Positions 8,407 through 32,720 of a stretch of DNA of 64,000 nt are shown piece by piece. The DNA is taken from assembly GCA_019057815.1 (NCBI GenBank), contig JAHLWR010000005.1, positions 32,001 to 96,000 on the forward strand. The letters are read 5' to 3'. A program made the position numbers and the translations under genes. The notes under the pieces were generated by a model. The model was not told the origin of the DNA and made no database searches. It saw nothing but the letters and a program-made list of their open reading frames with translations. Position 1 is the first letter of the stretch, and the number at the start of each line of letters is the position of its first letter. The DNA comes from Candidatus Heimdallarchaeota archaeon. Lineage in GTDB: Archaea; Asgardarchaeota; Heimdallarchaeia; Heimdallarchaeales; Heimdallarchaeaceae.

Positions 8407-9843
8407 TTATTTAGGTAAGATAATTATGTGTTCTTTGTTTGTTCTTAATTCTTCTTGACCTTGTTCAAAGAAAGTTAAAACCTTGTTTCCAAACGCCTTA
8501 GAAATGAAACCTTGCTCTATTAAATTATCAATAGTTCCTGAATCCACTGGTTCAACAACATCATTCTTTTTAACTATAAGAAGTCCAAGATCAACATATC
8601 GAAGTTTTCCTCCACTATAGAGTTCAACTGGTGTAACAATTTTTACTGTTTCACCCACAAGTATCTCTTTACGGAAAATCTTAGTGTGAATACTCCAACT
8701 TCCTTCTTTAGTTAATATAACAACTGAATCTCCTTGATGAATACCCTCGTTAAGCGCAAAATGTTCTCCCCGAGAAGAGCGAAAACTTCTTTCAATCACC
8801 ATAACATCCTTTGACCAGTTAAGTTGTCCCAAAACACGATACGTAGGAGCTGAAATTAAGCAATATTCCTGTAAATGGAGTATTGCGTTCTCTGAAAAAT
8901 CTCTTTCCAATATTGTTTCTTTAAGAAGAGAGGTAAGTTTTGTAGAGTCAACATCGGAAGACAATTTCTCTGCAAAAGTTGTGGTTAATTTGAGTTCAGG
9001 GGAGTAAGACATAAACCAATAGTAACTTGGAAGAGTTGGAGTAATTTCATTACGAATTTCACCCAGTTTATCTTTAGCAGCCTTAACAAACACTATGTGG
9101 GCAACAGCATGACCTGGTTGTAAAATACCCGGACCATAAGAAGAACCAGAAATAAGAAGATCTAACTCTTCTGCTTGTTGAATCAAATGGTCTATGTCTG
9201 CTTGAATTGCCTCAGAAGACGATTCTACTGCGCTTGTGCGCATTATCAATCCATGATCTCGAGGTCTTAATTGCTTCCCAAGTTCGAAAAGCCTATCTCT
9301 ATCATCCTTTGATAGTTTGCGGGAAACACGAACAAAATCAGCATCTCGCTCAAGAATAACAGCTTGACCAGGAAAATGTACTGTAGTAGAACAAACTGGA
9401 AGTTGATCTTCAAAGATATTTAGACTCTTTATTTGAACAACAATTTTTTGTTCTCGTCTATACTGTGCACCAAAAAGGATTGTATTAACATTCTCCCCAA
9501 TATCAACGATAGATAGATTCTTCTGATCATTTACGTGAACTACTGTCCCATTGTAAACAGCATGTAATTGAACTGGATGTTGAATTGTAATTGCATGTGG
9601 TATGGTTTCCCGAATAAGGGAAACTATTTCTGAAACATATTCTTCATCAGCCTCAATTGAGATACCATAGCCATCCATTACATCTGAAATCTCAATTTCG
9701 CTTGGATCATACTTTTGAGGAACCTTAAACAGCTTAGACTGTTCAGAGGTAGGTTGACATAATTTGTACTTTAGATTTTCAGTAATCAATTTAATAAGGG
9801 GTATATCATAAACACTTTTAACACGAAACATTGGACTAACCAT
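8407..9843 (-). CDS. FAU-1 (AU-rich RNA-binding ribonuclease; RNase E/G-like plus DUF402 domain)
   Basis: S1-like segment, VSRKL..RLFELG..GLIMRTSA (RNase G-like), C-terminal TPVELY..RYVDL. Confidence 0.8.
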   Translation of the reverse strand: MVSPMFRVKSVYDIPLIKLITENLKYKLCQPTSEQSKLFKVPQKYDPSEIEISDVMDGYGISIEADEEYVSEIVSLIRETIPHAITIQHPVQLHAVYNGTVVHVNDQKNLSIVDIGENVNTILFGAQYRREQKIVVQIKSLNIFEDQLPVCSTTVHFPGQAVILERDADFVRVSRKLSKDDRDRLFELGKQLRPRDHGLIMRTSAVESSSEAIQADIDHLIQQAEELDLLISGSSYGPGILQPGHAVAHIVFVKAAKDKLGEIRNEITPTLPSYYWFMSYSPELKLTTTFAEKLSSDVDSTKLTSLLKETILERDFSENAILHLQEYCLISAPTYRVLGQLNWSKDVMVIERSFRSSRGEHFALNEGIHQGDSVVILTKEGSWSIHTKIFRKEILVGETVKIVTPVELYSGGKLRYVDLGLLIVKKNDVVEPVDSGTIDNLIEQGFISKAFGNKVLTFFEQGQEELRTNKEHIIILPK

Positions 9844-9988: not shown

Positions 9989-10071
9989 TGGAGCCAGGAC
10001 GGGGATTTGAACCCCGGCGCCAAAAGGCAGAGGCTTTCGAAGCCACCGTCATACCACTAGACTATCCTGGC
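9989..10071 (-). tRNA. tRNA-Ser(CGA)
   Basis: GCCAGGA/TCCTGGC acceptor, anticodon loop TT-CGA-AA, long variable arm GCC-TTTT-GGC, T arm CGGGG-TTCAAAT-CCCCG, encoded CCA. Confidence 0.88.
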
Positions 10072-10133: not shown

Positions 10134-10745
10134 TCACATTCGTATATACTTAGTACTTCCACAGTCTTTACATCCTTTTATCGAGCAATTAGAACAATAA
10201 TAAACCCCACATTTAGCACATTTTGATGTTGCTTTGATACTACAAGATATACAGCTCTTTGCTTTAAGTCGACGATGAATGAAAATGAAACCATATACAC
10301 CTAAAGCGAAGGCTCCGATACCACCAGCTACTTTTATAACAATCAAAAAAACACCACCAGCTGGCGAGCTAGTTCCAGGAGTTGAATCTTTTACTATTTC
10401 AATAATTGTTGTATTATGGTATTCATAAAGAGTAATCGTTTCATCTTCTTGTGAAACGTACCACGAAATTAGATCTTTAGTTTCTCCCAATTTCATGCCA
10501 AGTAATTCATTTATGAAGTTTTCATTGAAAGAATCTGGATTAACAACAATAGTCAATGGATAGTCGGGAGTGTAGATATAGGGCTCCCAGGTTTTGTGAT
10601 CGATTATCCGTGTACAAGTTACATTAACAGTATCATTATATTCAACACCTAGTTTATCATCGTAAGATTGAACAAGAAGACTTGGAAGTATTAAGAAATT
10701 GAACATCAACAAAACTACGACTGTATAAAAGGAAACCCTTTTCAT
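10134..10745 (-). CDS. Type I membrane protein: signal peptide, FKBP/SlyD-like domain, TM helix, 8-Cys zinc finger (paralog A)
   Basis: Hydrophobic N-terminus; VEYNDTVNV..PLTIVV..ELLGMKLGETK; TM followed by HRRLKAK; CISC-CAKC-CSNC-CKDC. Confidence 0.75.
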   Translation of the reverse strand: MKRVSFYTVVVLLMFNFLILPSLLVQSYDDKLGVEYNDTVNVTCTRIIDHKTWEPYIYTPDYPLTIVVNPDSFNENFINELLGMKLGETKDLISWYVSQEDETITLYEYHNTTIIEIVKDSTPGTSSPAGGVFLIVIKVAGGIGAFALGVYGFIFIHRRLKAKSCISCSIKATSKCAKCGVYYCSNCSIKGCKDCGSTKYIRM

Positions 10746-10799
10746 CGAGCTGAAAGAGAAAAGGAAACATAAAAGAATTTCGGAAACTGTCTTAATTTC

Positions 10800-11447
10800 T
10801 TACCTTTTGAAATGGATTAATGTACGGCTTTTACAAGCTGGACAACCATTAGAGTAACATCGTTCACAAAAAGCTTTGTTGCATTTTGTGCATTTTCCAA
10901 TGGCACTTTTCTTGCACACCAAGCAGCGTTTACCAAAAATCTTAGGATAATAACGATAACCAAAATAAACAAGACCTAAAACTGCACAAAAGCCCAGAAC
11001 GCCAAGACCTATTCGAAGGAAATAATAACCGAATTGACCAAGATTATCGTCCGGTTCTTCCGTCGTTGAAACACCGTTTATTTCATAAATTTCAAGATCA
11101 TAATAGTATAAAGTTTTACCCTCTAATTCAGGGTGGTAGGGATCAGAAAAAGTGAACCCTTCCTCAGGTAAGACAGTAATATCTTTAGGAGTATGAAGCG
11201 CCATTCCAATAAGAGCATTAAACAACCCTTCAGGGGTAACAATGTCTGGAACTAAGCGTTTCTTTACTGGGAATTCCCTATGATAATAATCGATAACTGC
11301 ATGATCAACTTCCAAACGATAACCGTAAGATAATAAATCTCCAATCTCAACATAAGGTGGAGCGGCTGCACACTGCTCAATATATGAGGGTAGAGTAAAA
11401 ATTATCATAGACAACAAAAATATAAGGGGAGCTTTGGTTCTAACCAT
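10800..11447 (-). CDS. Type I membrane protein: signal peptide, FKBP/SlyD-like domain, TM helix, 8-Cys zinc finger (paralog B)
   Basis: ATG 11447 (MVRTKAPLIFLL). VEIGD..Y..D..EGLFNALIGM..KDITVLPEEGF..HPELEGKTLYY..EIYEI; TM; CLVC-CTKC-CERC-CPAC. Confidence 0.8.
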   Translation of the reverse strand: MVRTKAPLIFLLSMIIFTLPSYIEQCAAAPPYVEIGDLLSYGYRLEVDHAVIDYYHREFPVKKRLVPDIVTPEGLFNALIGMALHTPKDITVLPEEGFTFSDPYHPELEGKTLYYYDLEIYEINGVSTTEEPDDNLGQFGYYFLRIGLGVLGFCAVLGLVYFGYRYYPKIFGKRCLVCKKSAIGKCTKCNKAFCERCYSNGCPACKSRTLIHFKR

Positions 11448-11655: not shown

Positions 11656-11765
11656 GGGGCAGTAGTTTAGTCTGGTCAATGATCGTGGACTGTCAAGCGA
11701 GTTACAGCATCTGTAGCCAGTGCTGAACTCCATGGACCCGGGTTCAAATCCCGGCTGCCTCGCCA
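11656..11765 (+). tRNA. tRNA-Asp(GTC) with 32-nt intron at 37/38 (11696..11727)
   Basis: GGGGCAG/CTGCCTC acceptor, G73, CCA. Anticodon stem GTGGA/TCCAT, loop CT-GTC-A|C. T arm CCGGG-TTCAAAT-CCCGG. Confidence 0.9.
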
Positions 11766-11816: not shown

Positions 11817-12785
11817 TTAACTTCTCATCCGCTTTAGAATCCTTTCCACTAAGAATGTTATCCATGCTGATGGTTCTCCTTTTTGGCCAAAATCCCACCC
11901 TTTCCAAGCCCGCCATACCGATTCTGCTGTATACCTACCTTTTTCATCGGCTTTTTGTTTTATTATATCTACCATTTCAACTAATCTTTCATCGTTTCTT
12001 AACCAAGGAAATTGAGATAAAACTTCAGTAACATGCAAAATATCATACCATATTAAAGGGGCTTTTAATTTTTTGAATCGACTACCCATCCCAAACAAAT
12101 ATGGTTTCCTTTCTTTTCTTTTTTCCCATAATTCAAGTAAAGATTCTGCTCCAATCTTACATTCGTTACTATTTCTCCACTTTTTCATTTGAGAGAGAGC
12201 TTTAAGTACTACAAGATTAGCATAAGGGCAAGGATCAGTTTTTCTTCCAGGACCCCTGAACTTTCCTAAATCGTTAGATACAGCACAAGGCCATCCATTT
12301 TCTCTTATTAAAGTTACTATATACTTTGCCGATTGTTCAACATTTTTCTCCTCATCTAAACCAAATTTGGCAATAGCATACACAATTAATGGTGCATCAC
12401 AGAGCATCCACGAAAACTGATTTGTTCCAGATCCCCCAAATCTAATTGGTATATTTACGAGCACTTGAAAAACTCCTTCCTCAGATTTTCTATTGGAAAT
12501 TTTATCGATTACTAACTGGATACCATCGTCTTCTTGTGTTAACCCCAAATCAGCTGCTAAAGTTAATTTATGTAACAGGTGACTAGCATCATTGTGACGT
12601 TTTAACGGTGACCCAGGCCATAAATGGAGCTCTGCAACCATTTTCTTTATTTTAGAGTCCTTCAACATTATTTTTTTGGCAGAAACAACCTCTGGTGATT
12701 TTTCAGGCTGGTTAAGCAAATGCACACGAACATTATATTCGACCCAAGGTTCAGATTGAACCAACCATGCTATAACATCTTTCAT
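11817..12785 (-). CDS. Prenyltransferase/terpene-cyclase-like (alpha/alpha)-barrel protein of unknown function
   Basis: WL..EPWVEY, NGWPC, CPYAN, WYDIL, QKADEKGRY, PSAWIT repeats typical of this uncharacterised family. Confidence 0.6.
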   Translation of the reverse strand: MKDVIAWLVQSEPWVEYNVRVHLLNQPEKSPEVVSAKKIMLKDSKIKKMVAELHLWPGSPLKRHNDASHLLHKLTLAADLGLTQEDDGIQLVIDKISNRKSEEGVFQVLVNIPIRFGGSGTNQFSWMLCDAPLIVYAIAKFGLDEEKNVEQSAKYIVTLIRENGWPCAVSNDLGKFRGPGRKTDPCPYANLVVLKALSQMKKWRNSNECKIGAESLLELWEKRKERKPYLFGMGSRFKKLKAPLIWYDILHVTEVLSQFPWLRNDERLVEMVDIIKQKADEKGRYTAESVWRAWKGWDFGQKGEPSAWITFLVERILKRMRS

Positions 12786-13077: not shown

Positions 13078-13644
13078 TTAGTCTAGGCCCACTTCTACAC
13101 GTTTCTTTTCAACAGCAGCCATAAGTTCTTTAGCAAAAGTTATGAAAGCATCTTCAACTTTTTCTCCTGTTTTAGCAGAAGTAATAAAGAATGATTCCTT
13201 TGGCAGTTTTAGCTCCTCCACTAGTTTGTAAGTTTCATCATCTGAAATTACAACTTGTTCCTTTAGATCTGCTTTATTTCCAACAACAAAGAAAATTACT
13301 TCCTCTTCCACACTATCTAACCCCTTTTTCCACAAATTCAAGGATGTTAATGTATTTTCTCTAGTGAGATCAAAAACAAGGAGGCACCCCTTTGCACCGC
13401 GATAAAATTTCTCTCTGACAGAGGCAAATCTTTCTTGACCACCTATATCACTTATCAAAAATAAAACTTCGTCATCACCGACAAACAGCTGTTTACTTAG
13501 AATATCAACGCCTATAGTCATCAGATAAGAAGCAGAGAATCTATTATGTACAAAGCGTGTAATAAGCGAACTTTTTCCTACTCCAGGATCTCCAAGTAAG
13601 ACTATTTTGAAGATGTATTTCCGTCCTTGCTTCTTCTCGACCAT
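13078..13644 (-). CDS. Rab-like small GTPase (Ras superfamily)
   Basis: G1 GDPGVGKS, G2 TIGVD, G3 DIGGQERF, FYRGA, G4 GNKAD, G5 TSAK; no C-terminal Cys. Confidence 0.95.
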   Translation of the reverse strand: MVEKKQGRKYIFKIVLLGDPGVGKSSLITRFVHNRFSASYLMTIGVDILSKQLFVGDDEVLFLISDIGGQERFASVREKFYRGAKGCLLVFDLTRENTLTSLNLWKKGLDSVEEEVIFFVVGNKADLKEQVVISDDETYKLVEELKLPKESFFITSAKTGEKVEDAFITFAKELMAAVEKKRVEVGLD

Positions 13645-30005: not shown

Positions 30006-32720
30006 TTATTCATTTTCCTTTTTTATTGTTGCTTGTGCAGCAGCTAACCTAGCAACAGGAACTCTATATGGAGAACAACTAACATAATCTAAGCCAATTC
30101 GATAACAAAAATCTATAGATTTTAGTTCACCACCTTGTTCTCCGCATATACCTATCTCAAGATTGGGATTGGCTTGTTTTCCTTCATCTACGCACATCTT
30201 CATTAGACGACCGACTCCTGGTTGATCTATTGTCACGAAAGGATCATCAGCAATTATGTCCAGTTCCAAGTATCGTGCTATGAGTGATCCAGTATCATCT
30301 CTACTGAAACCTAGTGCCATTTGATGTAAATCATTTGTTCCAAAAGAGAAGAATTGCGCTCCATTTTCACCGCCCGCTATCTCTCCAGCAGTTAAAGCGG
30401 CACGAGGAACTTCAATCATTGTTCCAACAAGGTAGTCAAATTCTATATCTTCTTCTTCCATTACTTGTTTTGCAACCTTATCTACTATTTCCTTTTGATG
30501 TTGAAATTCTTTTGAAAAGCCAATAAGTGGTACCATAATTTCTGGCATTACGTCTTTTCCTTTTTTCTTTACTTTTGCAGCAGCACGAAATATTGCCTCG
30601 CTTTGCATTACAGTTACCATCTGAAGAGTGATTCCCAATCTACAGCCACGAAGTCCAAGCATTGGATTTTGCTCATGCATTGATTTTACAACTTCAAGGA
30701 GTTCGTATTTGTCCTTCAACATATCTTCGCTCTTGCCTTCTAAACGTTCTTCATATATTTCAGTTATGAGTTCTTCAATACTTGGTAGAAATTCATGTAA
30801 CGGAGGATCTATGAGACGAATAATAACAGGTTTTCCTTCTGCGACTTCAAATAAACCTTCAAAATCTGCTTGTTGTAGGGGTTCAAGTTTGTCTACTGCT
30901 TCTTGTCGTTCTTTCTCTGTTTTAGCTAAAATCATATCTCTAACTAGAGGGATATTATCGAAAAACATATGCTCTGTCCTACAAAGACCTATTCCCTCTG
31001 CTCCAAAATCAAGCGCTTTTCTGAATTGATCAGGTTTATCGGCATTTGCTTTTACGCTAATTTTTGCTATGTTATCACACCATTCAAGTATCTTTGTCAT
31101 ACCTTCTGGCAAAGAAGCTGGTGTTGTAGGTAATTTTCCTTTATATACAAATCCATCAGTACCATCTATTGTAATCCATTCACCTTCTCTGATTATCATA
31201 CCTTTACCATGTAATTCTGTTTTTTCAATATCAATGAAAATACCGCCTCGTTCACTTCCCACTATACATGCTTTACCTATTTGACGAGCAACAATAGCTG
31301 CGTGAGATGTTAAACCACCTTTCATTGTGAGTATTCCTTGACTTGCTGCCATGCCATGAAAATCTTCAGGTGTTGTTTCAACACGAACAAGAATGACATC
31401 ATCACCACGATCAGTGGCGTCTTTAGCTCTATCAGCATCAAAATAAGCTTTACCGCTTGCAGCAGCAGCTCCAGCAGCTAGTCCTGAACCAATAACACTG
31501 GATTCCATTTCATGTTTAATTTGTTGAATAGGTGCATTTGGGTTAATTTCAGGCCAATTTACTGAAGGAAATAAACAATTATCTACATCACTTGGTTGGA
31601 TGCGCATTATTGCTTCTTCTTTACTTATTACCCCCTCTATTACAAGATCATAAGCAATTTTTCCTGCTGCAACACCTGTTCTTTTACCATTTCGAGTTTG
31701 GAGAATATACATTTTTCCTTGTTGAATTGTAAATTCCATATCTTGCATGTCATGGTATAGTTTCTCCAGTGTTTCAGATACCTCAAAAAGTTGATTATAA
31801 ACCTCGGGCATAATCTTTGTCAATTCTTCAATGGGTTGAGGAGTACGAATCCCTGCAACTACATCTTCTCCTTGAGCATTAATGAGATATTCACCATATA
31901 ACGTTCTATCACCATTTGAGGGGTTACGAGTAAAAGCTACACCAGTTGCTGAGTCATTACCCATATTACCATAAACCATTGTTTGAATATTTACTGCTGT
32001 TCCCAAATCATGGGGTATTCCTTGATGGTTTCTATAATCTATTGCACGTTTGGTATTCCAACTACGAAACACTGCGCGAATAGATTTATTCAATTGCTCT
32101 TTTGGGTTTTGAGGGAAGGATTCACCTAATTTTTCTTTATATAGATTCTTATTAATCTCAACAAGTTTCTTTAATCCTTCAGTAGGAATATCGGTATCAG
32201 ATTCAACACCATATTCTTTCTTCATTTTTTCAAGTTCTATTTCAAAATGGCGTTTAGAAAGACCCATAACGACATCTCCGTACATATAAATTAGTCTACG
32301 GTAGCTGTCATAGGCGAATCTTTCATTATTAGTTTCTTTCGCTAATCCTTCGACTGAAATATCATTCAACCCTAAATTAAGGATTGTATCCATCATCCCT
32401 GGCATAGAAATCGCTGCTCCAGACCTAACAGAAACAAGTAAGGGATCATTGTCACCACCTAATTTTTTTCCATTGGTTTCTTCCAATGCTGCTAGAGCTT
32501 TGTCTATTTGTTCAGATAGTCCTTCGGGATATTCTTCATTATTTTCTAAAAAGTGCAAACATGCACTTGTGGAAATGATAAAACCTGGAGGAATGGGAAG
32601 ACCCAGAGAAGTCATTTGAGTAAGATTAGCGCCTTTTCCACCCAAGAGTTTCTTCATTTCAGCGTTTCCTTCACAATTTTCTTGACTGAAAAATTTATAG
32701 ACATACTTATTATTTATCAT
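30006..32720 (-). CDS. ppdK: Pyruvate, phosphate dikinase
   Basis: LGGKGANL, SVRSGA..SMPGMMDT, GEDVVAGIRTP, GGLTSHAA (phospho-His), GIGLCRTEHMF, FSFGTNDL, GICGE. Confidence 0.98.
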   Translation of the reverse strand: MINNKYVYKFFSQENCEGNAEMKKLLGGKGANLTQMTSLGLPIPPGFIISTSACLHFLENNEEYPEGLSEQIDKALAALEETNGKKLGGDNDPLLVSVRSGAAISMPGMMDTILNLGLNDISVEGLAKETNNERFAYDSYRRLIYMYGDVVMGLSKRHFEIELEKMKKEYGVESDTDIPTEGLKKLVEINKNLYKEKLGESFPQNPKEQLNKSIRAVFRSWNTKRAIDYRNHQGIPHDLGTAVNIQTMVYGNMGNDSATGVAFTRNPSNGDRTLYGEYLINAQGEDVVAGIRTPQPIEELTKIMPEVYNQLFEVSETLEKLYHDMQDMEFTIQQGKMYILQTRNGKRTGVAAGKIAYDLVIEGVISKEEAIMRIQPSDVDNCLFPSVNWPEINPNAPIQQIKHEMESSVIGSGLAAGAAAASGKAYFDADRAKDATDRGDDVILVRVETTPEDFHGMAASQGILTMKGGLTSHAAIVARQIGKACIVGSERGGIFIDIEKTELHGKGMIIREGEWITIDGTDGFVYKGKLPTTPASLPEGMTKILEWCDNIAKISVKANADKPDQFRKALDFGAEGIGLCRTEHMFFDNIPLVRDMILAKTEKERQEAVDKLEPLQQADFEGLFEVAEGKPVIIRLIDPPLHEFLPSIEELITEIYEERLEGKSEDMLKDKYELLEVVKSMHEQNPMLGLRGCRLGITLQMVTVMQSEAIFRAAAKVKKKGKDVMPEIMVPLIGFSKEFQHQKEIVDKVAKQVMEEEDIEFDYLVGTMIEVPRAALTAGEIAGGENGAQFFSFGTNDLHQMALGFSRDDTGSLIARYLELDIIADDPFVTIDQPGVGRLMKMCVDEGKQANPNLEIGICGEQGGELKSIDFCYRIGLDYVSCSPYRVPVARLAAAQATIKKENE

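Follow-up and report, generated by a model that had tools for sequence, protein, structure and literature searches.

An FKBP-like protein pair of Heimdall-class archaea and a thioredoxin with one cytoplasmic finger: candidate membrane-tethered folding helpers

The stretch of DNA analysed here, which we call the window, comprises 64,000 nucleotides of contig JAHLWR010000005.1 of a Candidatus Heimdallarchaeota archaeon (positions 32,001 to 96,000) and contains two neighboring genes for paralogous proteins, named B and A. The layout of both proteins is a signal peptide, an FKBP-like ectodomain, one transmembrane (TM) helix, a basic juxtamembrane stretch and a finger with eight Cys. Our reading, to which we give a slightly better than even chance, is that A and B are extracytoplasmic folding helpers, tethered to the membrane, that share a docking finger on the cytoplasmic side. 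It is built on the folds, the logic of the topology, conservation, distribution and a cassette shared with a thioredoxin-fold protein of the same genome, and from these we infer a candidate enzymatic activity, zinc binding and a cytoplasmic partner. The components are all of known kinds and the combination is new: literature searches found no paper describing FKBP-TM-finger or thioredoxin-TM-finger proteins, so a sequence-only reading of this DNA, made before the present analysis, was right to take the architecture for an undescribed one.

Architecture and topology of A and B

The two open reading frames (ORFs) sit exactly where the sequence-only reading had placed them, co-oriented between a tRNA-Ser and a tRNA-Asp gene, and a 54-nt spacer separates A and B. 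B starts with the ATG at 11447; a longer, TTG-started frame of B reaches 11510 but is not needed. The two proteins are paralogs, as had been claimed, and align over their full length with 28% identity (E 2e-14). Their genes and segments are as follows.

10800..11447, minus strand: gene of paralog B, 215 aa (ORF and translation; ATG at 11447)
11364..11447, minus strand: predicted signal peptide of B, aa 1-28, predicted cleavage at C-A-A/A-P, the slash marking the cut (hydropathy; conservation of A28/A29)
11073..11363, minus strand: FKBP-fold ectodomain of B, aa 29-125, SlyD-type motif PxGL..A..GM......PEEGF, no insert-in-flap
10959..11033, minus strand: juxtamembrane FG motif and TM helix of B, aa 139-163 (hydropathy; helix 134-171 of the AF2 model; conservation)
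10803..10958, minus strand: cytoplasmic tail of B, aa 164-215, with the basic juxtamembrane YPKIFGKR, the finger and the C-terminal KSRTLIHFKR
10833-10925, minus strand: eight-Cys finger of B, aa 175-205
10134..10745, minus strand: gene of paralog A, 203 aa (ORF and translation)
10389..10664, minus strand: ectodomain of A, aa 28-119, which keeps LLGMKLGETK and has three N-x-T sequons
10278..10355, minus strand: TM helix of A, aa ~131-156 (hydropathy; preceded by a conserved DSTPGTSSPAG linker)
10137..10280, minus strand: cytoplasmic tail of A, aa 156-203, with the C-terminal GSTKYIRM
10161-10253, minus strand: finger of A, aa 165-195

Hydropathy analysis showed that the N-terminus of A and B has basic residues and then a hydrophobic segment, and that a second hydrophobic segment (approximately aa 131-156 in A and 141-163 in B) is followed in each protein by a K/R-rich stretch. 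A28 and A29 of B, at the end of the first hydrophobic stretch, were invariant or nearly so in the orthologs (15 sequences, 44-90% identity), and hydropathy, the small residues at -1 and -3 and the positive-inside rule place a putative signal-peptide cleavage at this point. The orthologs of A had 40-91% identity, with 40-44% in other genera. Every family member had an acidic or Ser/Thr/Pro-rich segment before the TM helix and a K/R-rich segment after it. An eight-Cys zinc site requires a reducing compartment. This requirement, together with the charge pattern before and after the TM helix and the N-x-T sequons in the A ectodomain, would place the FKBP domain outside and the finger inside, and it points to an N-out/C-in topology of A and B, predicted from sequence features, irrespective of a cleavage of the N-terminal segment. 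The same topology and the same order of signal peptide, ectodomain, TM helix and C4C4 finger had been given by the sequence-only reading, and they agree with the hydropathy, with the K/R residues after the TM helix and with the Cys layout, which is present in both proteins.

In the juxtamembrane and TM segment of B, F139 and G140 were invariant and R145 was nearly invariant among the orthologs. The outer third of the TM helix carries a charged residue, which is this Arg in the B orthologs; among the A-type members and the thioredoxin-type proteins described below, many have K or E at this position and others an uncharged residue. The charged residue was also considered as a device for pairing of the paralogs, and this idea was dropped, because the position is K, E, A, T, Y, S or I across A-type members.

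Fold and pocket of the ectodomains

An AF2 model of B, made with the ortholog alignment, had a predicted local distance difference test score (pLDDT) of 81 overall and of approximately 90 over aa 31-125. Foldseek analysis of this model found FKBP13/FKBP2 with TMt 0.77-0.79 at a root mean square deviation of 2.5 Å and probability 1.00, and the same probability was reached by SlyD delta-IF (TMt 0.70), by MjFKBP26 and by the FKBP11 chain of PDB entry 9n9j, the last over 156 columns. The best SlyD matches were delta-IF constructs, and B was found to have no insert-in-flap, with nothing inserted after PEEGF and the model continuing straight to the last strand. Pfam FKBP_C (PF00254) was matched by 12 of the 15 B orthologs (E up to 0.1, best 6.1e-8), and distant single-copy members are annotated FKBP_C. 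When the ectodomain profile was searched against the PDB, wheat FKBP73 (2.7e-5) and MjFKBP26 (1.3e-4) were found, and in the profile alignments the SlyD/archaeal motif is matched by PxGL..A..GM..G......PPEEGF, the motif of the family, with Leu taking the position of FKBP12 Trp59. At the positions of FKBP12 Y26, F36, D37, F46, V55, I56, W59, Y82 and F99, hidden Markov model alignments gave Y, I, E/D, V, V, x, L, F and Y in B-type members, and the pocket positions of B thus appear SlyD-like, with their hydrophobic or acidic character kept.

The FKBP assignment of B, and with it the earlier proposal of an FKBP fold that lacks the SlyD insert, is made through the orthologs (Pfam matches) and the fold (AF2 and Foldseek); direct Pfam and NCBIfam scans of A and B gave sub-threshold hits throughout (B-box, PHD-like and trigger-factor FKBP region), and phmmer of B against the PDB sequences returned noise only (eS17, eL43, PHD). 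B is probably a proline isomerase still, or at least a peptide-binding helper.

For A, the weak match to the trigger-factor FKBP region was at 0.037. Alignment of A with B-type sequences showed that 11 residues of the flap and the 80s loop are deleted in A, including PEEGF and the segment of the Y82 equivalent, which agrees with the earlier suggestion that A is the more degenerate FKBP. It appears to be FKBP-derived through its homology to B only, and degenerate, and it is probably an old, selected, non-catalytic copy. Co-folding of A with B (mature chains, with alignments) gave a score of 0.00 in a run without controls, and this speaks neither for nor against a heterodimer.

Class of the cytoplasmic finger

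The spacing CxxC-x7-CxxC-x4-CxxC-x4-CxxC is exact in both A and B. All eight Cys were invariant in the 15 B orthologs, and in 53 tails of the family seven Cys were invariant, the sixth ligand being C, S, H or D. In one clade ligand 6 is Ser, the loop between the first two knuckles has 12-13 residues and the first knuckle contains a His (CxHC). Ligand 6 is His or Asp in other members, and in the Kariarchaeaceae-type members CxHC occurs together with a Cys as ligand 6 and with Cx4C as the second knuckle. We considered compensation of the Ser at ligand 6 by the CxHC His as a proof of cross-brace wiring and dropped it, because the combination occurs in one clade only and the Kariarchaeaceae-type members have both the His and the Cys.

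The tail profile matched PML B-box1 (9.6e-4), the piggyBac cysteine-rich domain (CRD; 1.1e-3) and the ANCHR/ZFYVE19 B-box (7.4e-3), and the B-boxes of TRIM2 and MID1 were found as well. Pfam scans of the family tails gave sub-threshold matches to ANCHR-like_BBOX, zf-B_box, AN1 and PHD-like entries, the best B-box match having 19.8 bits against a cut-off of 27. A tail-only model of B had a pLDDT of 80; Foldseek with this model alone found nothing at E <= 0.001 (best E at least 0.067), and VIA-align against 48,161 chains had a best Z of 4.0, with PML B-box1 at Z 3.9, tied with ZZ and RING. The weak structure matches from the two programs were nearly all cross-brace binuclear fingers (ZZ, RING/U-box, B-box and piggyBac CRD). 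We regard the class of the modelled finger, a cross-brace binuclear treble clef with predicted zinc binding, as secure; a binuclear treble clef had been proposed before, and the matches, all marginal, were almost without exception to cross-brace folds. The sub-class (B-box, ZZ or RING) is beyond the reach of structure search, and the finger is best labelled B-box1-like. Its first six ligands agree with the B-box type 1 pattern C-x2-C-x6-17-C-x2-C-x4-8-C-x2-3-C/H, and the last pair is CxxC instead of two His.

The sequence-only reading had gone on to a RING-like or lipid-binding finger, so that A and B would be an ectodomain-TM-RING-like E3 ligase or a FYVE-like lipid binder in the Asgard ubiquitin system, possibly acting as a heterodimer. 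We consider this very improbable. It can draw on the cross-brace fold, for which RING and U-box chains came up as weak structure matches, on the CPxC[K/R] ending, which resembles the last RING knuckle and its 'linchpin' as generally known, and on three UQ_con (E2-like) proteins encoded in the genome. However, the RING consensus asks for x9-39 as the spacer of ligands 2 and 3 and for x2-3 as that of ligands 4 and 5, and these two spacers are x7 and x4 here, so the observed spacing x7/x2/x4/x2/x4/x2 misses the consensus. Ligands 6 and 7 are only four residues apart, which gives a single helical turn (tail-model aa 33-36) at the place where the E2-binding helix of a RING sits, and much of the family has S, H or D as ligand 6. 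There is no linkage to the E2 genes, which are on contigs C11 and C38 while the A/B locus is on C12, and no E1, E2 or ubiquitin gene was found beside the locus or at the loci L001, L002, L006 and L007. None of the FYVE motifs WxxD, R(R/K)HHCR and RVC occurred in the 53 aligned tails, and FYVE chains came up in the profile search only at E of at least 0.12. The finger is also found on a thioredoxin, as described in the next section. In our reading the finger is not a RING-type ubiquitin ligase, and with the basic FYVE motif missing the FYVE version was not supported either.

A thioredoxin with the same cassette

A search of this genome with the family profile returned three proteins, namely B, A and P0171, the last of 270 aa and encoded on another contig.

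Contig C36 35009-35821 (= L005:1498-2310), minus strand: P0171 gene, outside the window

P0171 has a signal peptide and a TlpA-like thioredoxin ectodomain (WCSPC), followed by a linker, a TM helix and the eight-Cys finger. Its Pfam matches were AhpC-TSA (5.1e-17), Redoxin (6.5e-16) and Thioredoxin_8 (5e-10), all above the cut-off. The last 81 residues of P0171 were 47% identical to those of A in a gapless alignment (2e-25) and 30% identical to those of B, and a tail-only profile found the finger in just these three proteins of the genome. From these identities we conclude that the linker-TM-finger cassette has been shuffled between a degenerate FKBP and a thioredoxin. Frames with matches to the tail only, 267-277 aa long, were present in many genomes of the window's family, and a homolog is annotated 'thiol-disulfide isomerase/thioredoxin'. 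The gene neighbors of P0171 are a SPASM-domain protein and a 429-aa protein without Pfam family.

Two unrelated kinds of extracytoplasmic folding catalyst with one cytoplasmic module argue for a docking or assembly tag and not for a sensor output. This bears on the earlier proposal of a signalling or quality-control system with a folding-sensor ectodomain, whose sensor part is weakened by the same cassette on a TlpA-like thioredoxin of this genome. As a transmembrane sensor or regulator, the protein would sense unfolded or proline-rich ligands with its ectodomain, and its basic finger would hold or release nucleic acid or a cytoplasmic regulator, like a membrane-tethered factor. The piggyBac CRD, which is a DNA-binding cross-brace finger and stands among the best matches, the very basic tail and the degenerate paralog A, which could serve as a pseudo-enzyme sensor, would suit such a role. 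But the tail is carried equally by a thioredoxin-fold oxidoreductase with intact CxxC, which is a better fit to catalysts, and we saw neither a conserved regulator gene alongside nor a cleavage or release module, so we judge the sensor explanation improbable.

Quantitative analysis of the tails showed a net charge of +4 to +14 over approximately 52 residues in all 53 of them, with +13 for residues 163-215 of B, +10 for residues 153-203 of A and +13 for the tail of P0171. In the B orthologs, the juxtamembrane stretch, the finger and the C-terminus had mean pairwise identities of 0.67-0.75 without the Cys columns, versus 0.50 for the FKBP domain. The tail thus appears to be the most constrained part of B, which fits a specific acidic cytoplasmic partner.

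The charge and the kind of finger can also be explained by a clustering or membrane-attachment tag, in which case the finger would self-associate, as the B-boxes of TRIM proteins and PML do, or bind acidic lipid head groups, and in this way bring the ectodomains of the FKBPs and the thioredoxin together in a folding patch at the surface. We see this as possible and rather unlikely. In favor of such a tag, B-box1 domains are the closest matches by sequence, an acidic membrane face would suit the very high positive charge, and the tag is carried by three proteins and by two or three tandem copies in the window's family. However, the conservation of the non-Cys tail positions of B exceeds what charge alone needs, and the tails have no lipid motif of the FYVE type.

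Occurrence in Asgard archaea and flanking genes

A profile search of 1.84 billion representative proteins gave 194 matches, approximately 70 of them with the finger; the rest were mostly matches of the FKBP part only (ordinary FKBPs, many of them exported), with a few fragments. Named members belong to 'Candidatus Heimdallarchaeota' and 'Kariarchaeaceae' and are annotated as hypothetical protein or FKBP-type peptidyl-prolyl isomerase (PPIase). The survey across Asgard archaea that the sequence-only reading had proposed was run on 400 genomes of the phylum. Full-length matches were found in 29 of 30 genomes of the window's family, in 1 of 1 and 12 of 12 genomes of two sister families and in 6 of 22 genomes of a fourth family. 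All four families belong to one class (Heimdall-type), to which the full-length architecture is confined, and outside this class the FKBP part alone matched.

Two or three adjacent copies are the rule in the window's family, and the single-copy clades have no such array. Three tandem FKBP-TM-finger copies were seen at G038:C5:18035-19994, G019:C154:13266-15225 and G020:C18:4126-6082. In several other genomes the second copy has one in-frame TAA, for which decay or an assembly error is possible. In one relative the paralogs flank the RNase E/G-like and DUF2797 genes and are not adjacent to each other. The features that flank the A/B pair in the window are as follows.

8407-9843, minus strand: gene of an RNase E/G-like (FAU-1-type) protein
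9989-10071, minus strand: tRNA-Ser(CGA), downstream flank (ARAGORN; Rfam 56 bits)
11656-11765, plus strand: tRNA-Asp(GTC), upstream flank, divergent, with a 32-nt anticodon-loop intron (Rfam tRNA 42 bits; ARAGORN -i)
11817-12785, minus strand: 322-aa ORF without Pfam family at E <= 0.001, between the Ras/Arf-like GTPase and the tRNA-Asp/B gene
13078-13644, minus strand: Ras/Roc/Arf-family small GTPase (Ras 8e-43)

The tRNA-Asp(GTC) gene was missed by ARAGORN with default settings and was found by Rfam and by ARAGORN with introns allowed (-i). The conserved gene order in the window's family is Ras/Arf-like GTPase, B, A, RNase E/G-like and DUF2797, with an orientation that varies among relatives. 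The whole region is syntenic and its orientation variable, so no functional link can be taken from these neighbors. At the relative locus L002 the GTPase directly adjoins B, so the 322-aa ORF of the window looks like an insertion into the conserved order. In the distant single-copy clade a conserved trio of genes lies divergently beside the FKBP-finger gene; they encode a protein of approximately 169 aa that belongs to no family, an AAA+ protein (MoxR/AAA_5-like) of approximately 512 aa and a VWA-domain protein of approximately 461 aa. The arrangement was seen at L006:182-3715, L007:776-5829, L008:539-4087 and L009:1-2089, and the trio is retained among members that share less than 50% identity.

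Discussion

The mechanism that we propose for the folding helpers has the following steps. A and B would be type-I membrane proteins with their FKBP-type domains facing the cell exterior, and one TM helix would tie each ectodomain to a B-box-like cross-brace finger in the cytoplasm, which would hold two zincs, is strongly basic and has a length of approximately 45 residues. The finger would act as a docking or assembly tag that fixes folding helpers, namely the FKBPs and a TlpA-like thiol-disulfide oxidoreductase, at a set membrane site. The most likely site would be the place where proteins emerge, which is the ribosome-bound Sec translocon or its neighborhood, by analogy with human FKBP11. 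In its fullest form, in which the finger docks the FKBP, its pseudo-enzyme partner and the thioredoxin on the translating ribosome or Sec translocon as a dedicated co-translational folding station of Heimdall-class Asgard archaea, the proposal is drawn from this analogy and we put it forward as speculative.

FKBP11, a TM FKBP, attaches to translocons with bound ribosomes by a conserved C-terminal helix of positive charge near uL22 and rRNA, and its role at the secretory translocon is that of a ribosome-binding adaptor (PMC12804085). Like B, the human protein (also named FKBP19; PDB 9n9j) has a signal peptide, a non-cytosolic FKBP domain, one TM helix and a short, conserved basic cytosolic tail, and the alignment of the B model with the FKBP11 chain over 156 columns includes the TM helix, at 20% identity. 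Unlike A and B, FKBP11 has no tandem degenerate paralog.

Several points weigh against the docking of folding helpers. The tail of FKBP11 is a basic helix, in contrast to the zinc finger of A and B, which limits the analogy to the layout; the FKBPs of eukaryotes are reportedly nearer to those of bacteria (PMC7016017), so the likeness to FKBP11 is again an analogy and carries no claim of ancestry. The neighbors supply no functional link, with none of them shared across the clades examined. The finger matches are marginal throughout, none being at the Pfam gathering score and none better than a Foldseek E of 0.067 or a VIA-align Z of 4. B itself, like A, had no Pfam FKBP_C match even at E 10, and because the flap is lost in A, the PPIase activity of A may be weak or absent.

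The closest relatives of eukaryotes known so far are Heimdall-class archaea, in which the folding and handling of secreted and membrane proteins is almost unstudied. FKBP and thioredoxin catalysts joined across the membrane to a cytoplasmic B-box-like finger have a layout otherwise known from translocon-associated factors of the eukaryotic endoplasmic reticulum (ER). Should the finger dock on the ribosome or translocon, then the recruitment of luminal-side folding helpers during translation would have existed, or arisen in parallel, in the archaeal lineage nearest to eukaryotes. The system would then work like the ER accessory factors of eukaryotes (FKBP11 and TMX-type thioredoxins) with a different cytosolic module, and a prokaryotic B-box-type finger would have a function outside the ubiquitin system. 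If the finger is a clustering tag only, the family would still be a clean, small and testable case of domain-cassette shuffling between two kinds of folding enzyme.

Each part of the architecture has a counterpart among known systems. SlyD and the short archaeal FKBPs (T. thermophilus SlyD and M. jannaschii FKBP26) share with B the motif PGL..A..GM..GE....PPE.(A/G)F and Leu at the position of FKBP12 Trp59. They are cytosolic and have an insert-in-flap chaperone domain, whereas A and B are predicted to be exported and membrane-anchored and have no insert and a zinc-finger tail. The tails share the spacing of the first six ligands, CxxC-x7-CxxC-x4-CxxC, with B-box1 and ANCHR-like B-boxes (PML, MID1, ZFYVE19) and with the piggyBac CRD. 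The last ligand pair is a CxxC four residues on in the tails and His/His in B-boxes, and the context of the tails is the C-terminus of an archaeal type-I membrane protein. Burroughs, Iyer and Aravind are said to have described, in 2011, membrane-associated peptidases as the partners of prokaryotic fingers; the profile of the present family retrieved no peptidase-linked proteins. In the paraphrase of that work given in PMC4506424, the prokaryotic B-box, AN1 and LIM fingers are binuclear treble clefs tied to membrane-protein folding and not to ubiquitin, and prokaryotic B-boxes are said there to act in membrane-protein folding, stability and proteolysis.

The third protein has its own relatives. 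TlpA/ResA thioredoxins and the eukaryotic TMX proteins are like P0171 in having an extracytoplasmic or lumenal thioredoxin fold, a CxxC and one TM helix. TlpA and ResA are anchored at the N-terminus. P0171, in contrast, is anchored by a C-terminal TM helix and ends in the zinc-finger cassette that it shares with A.

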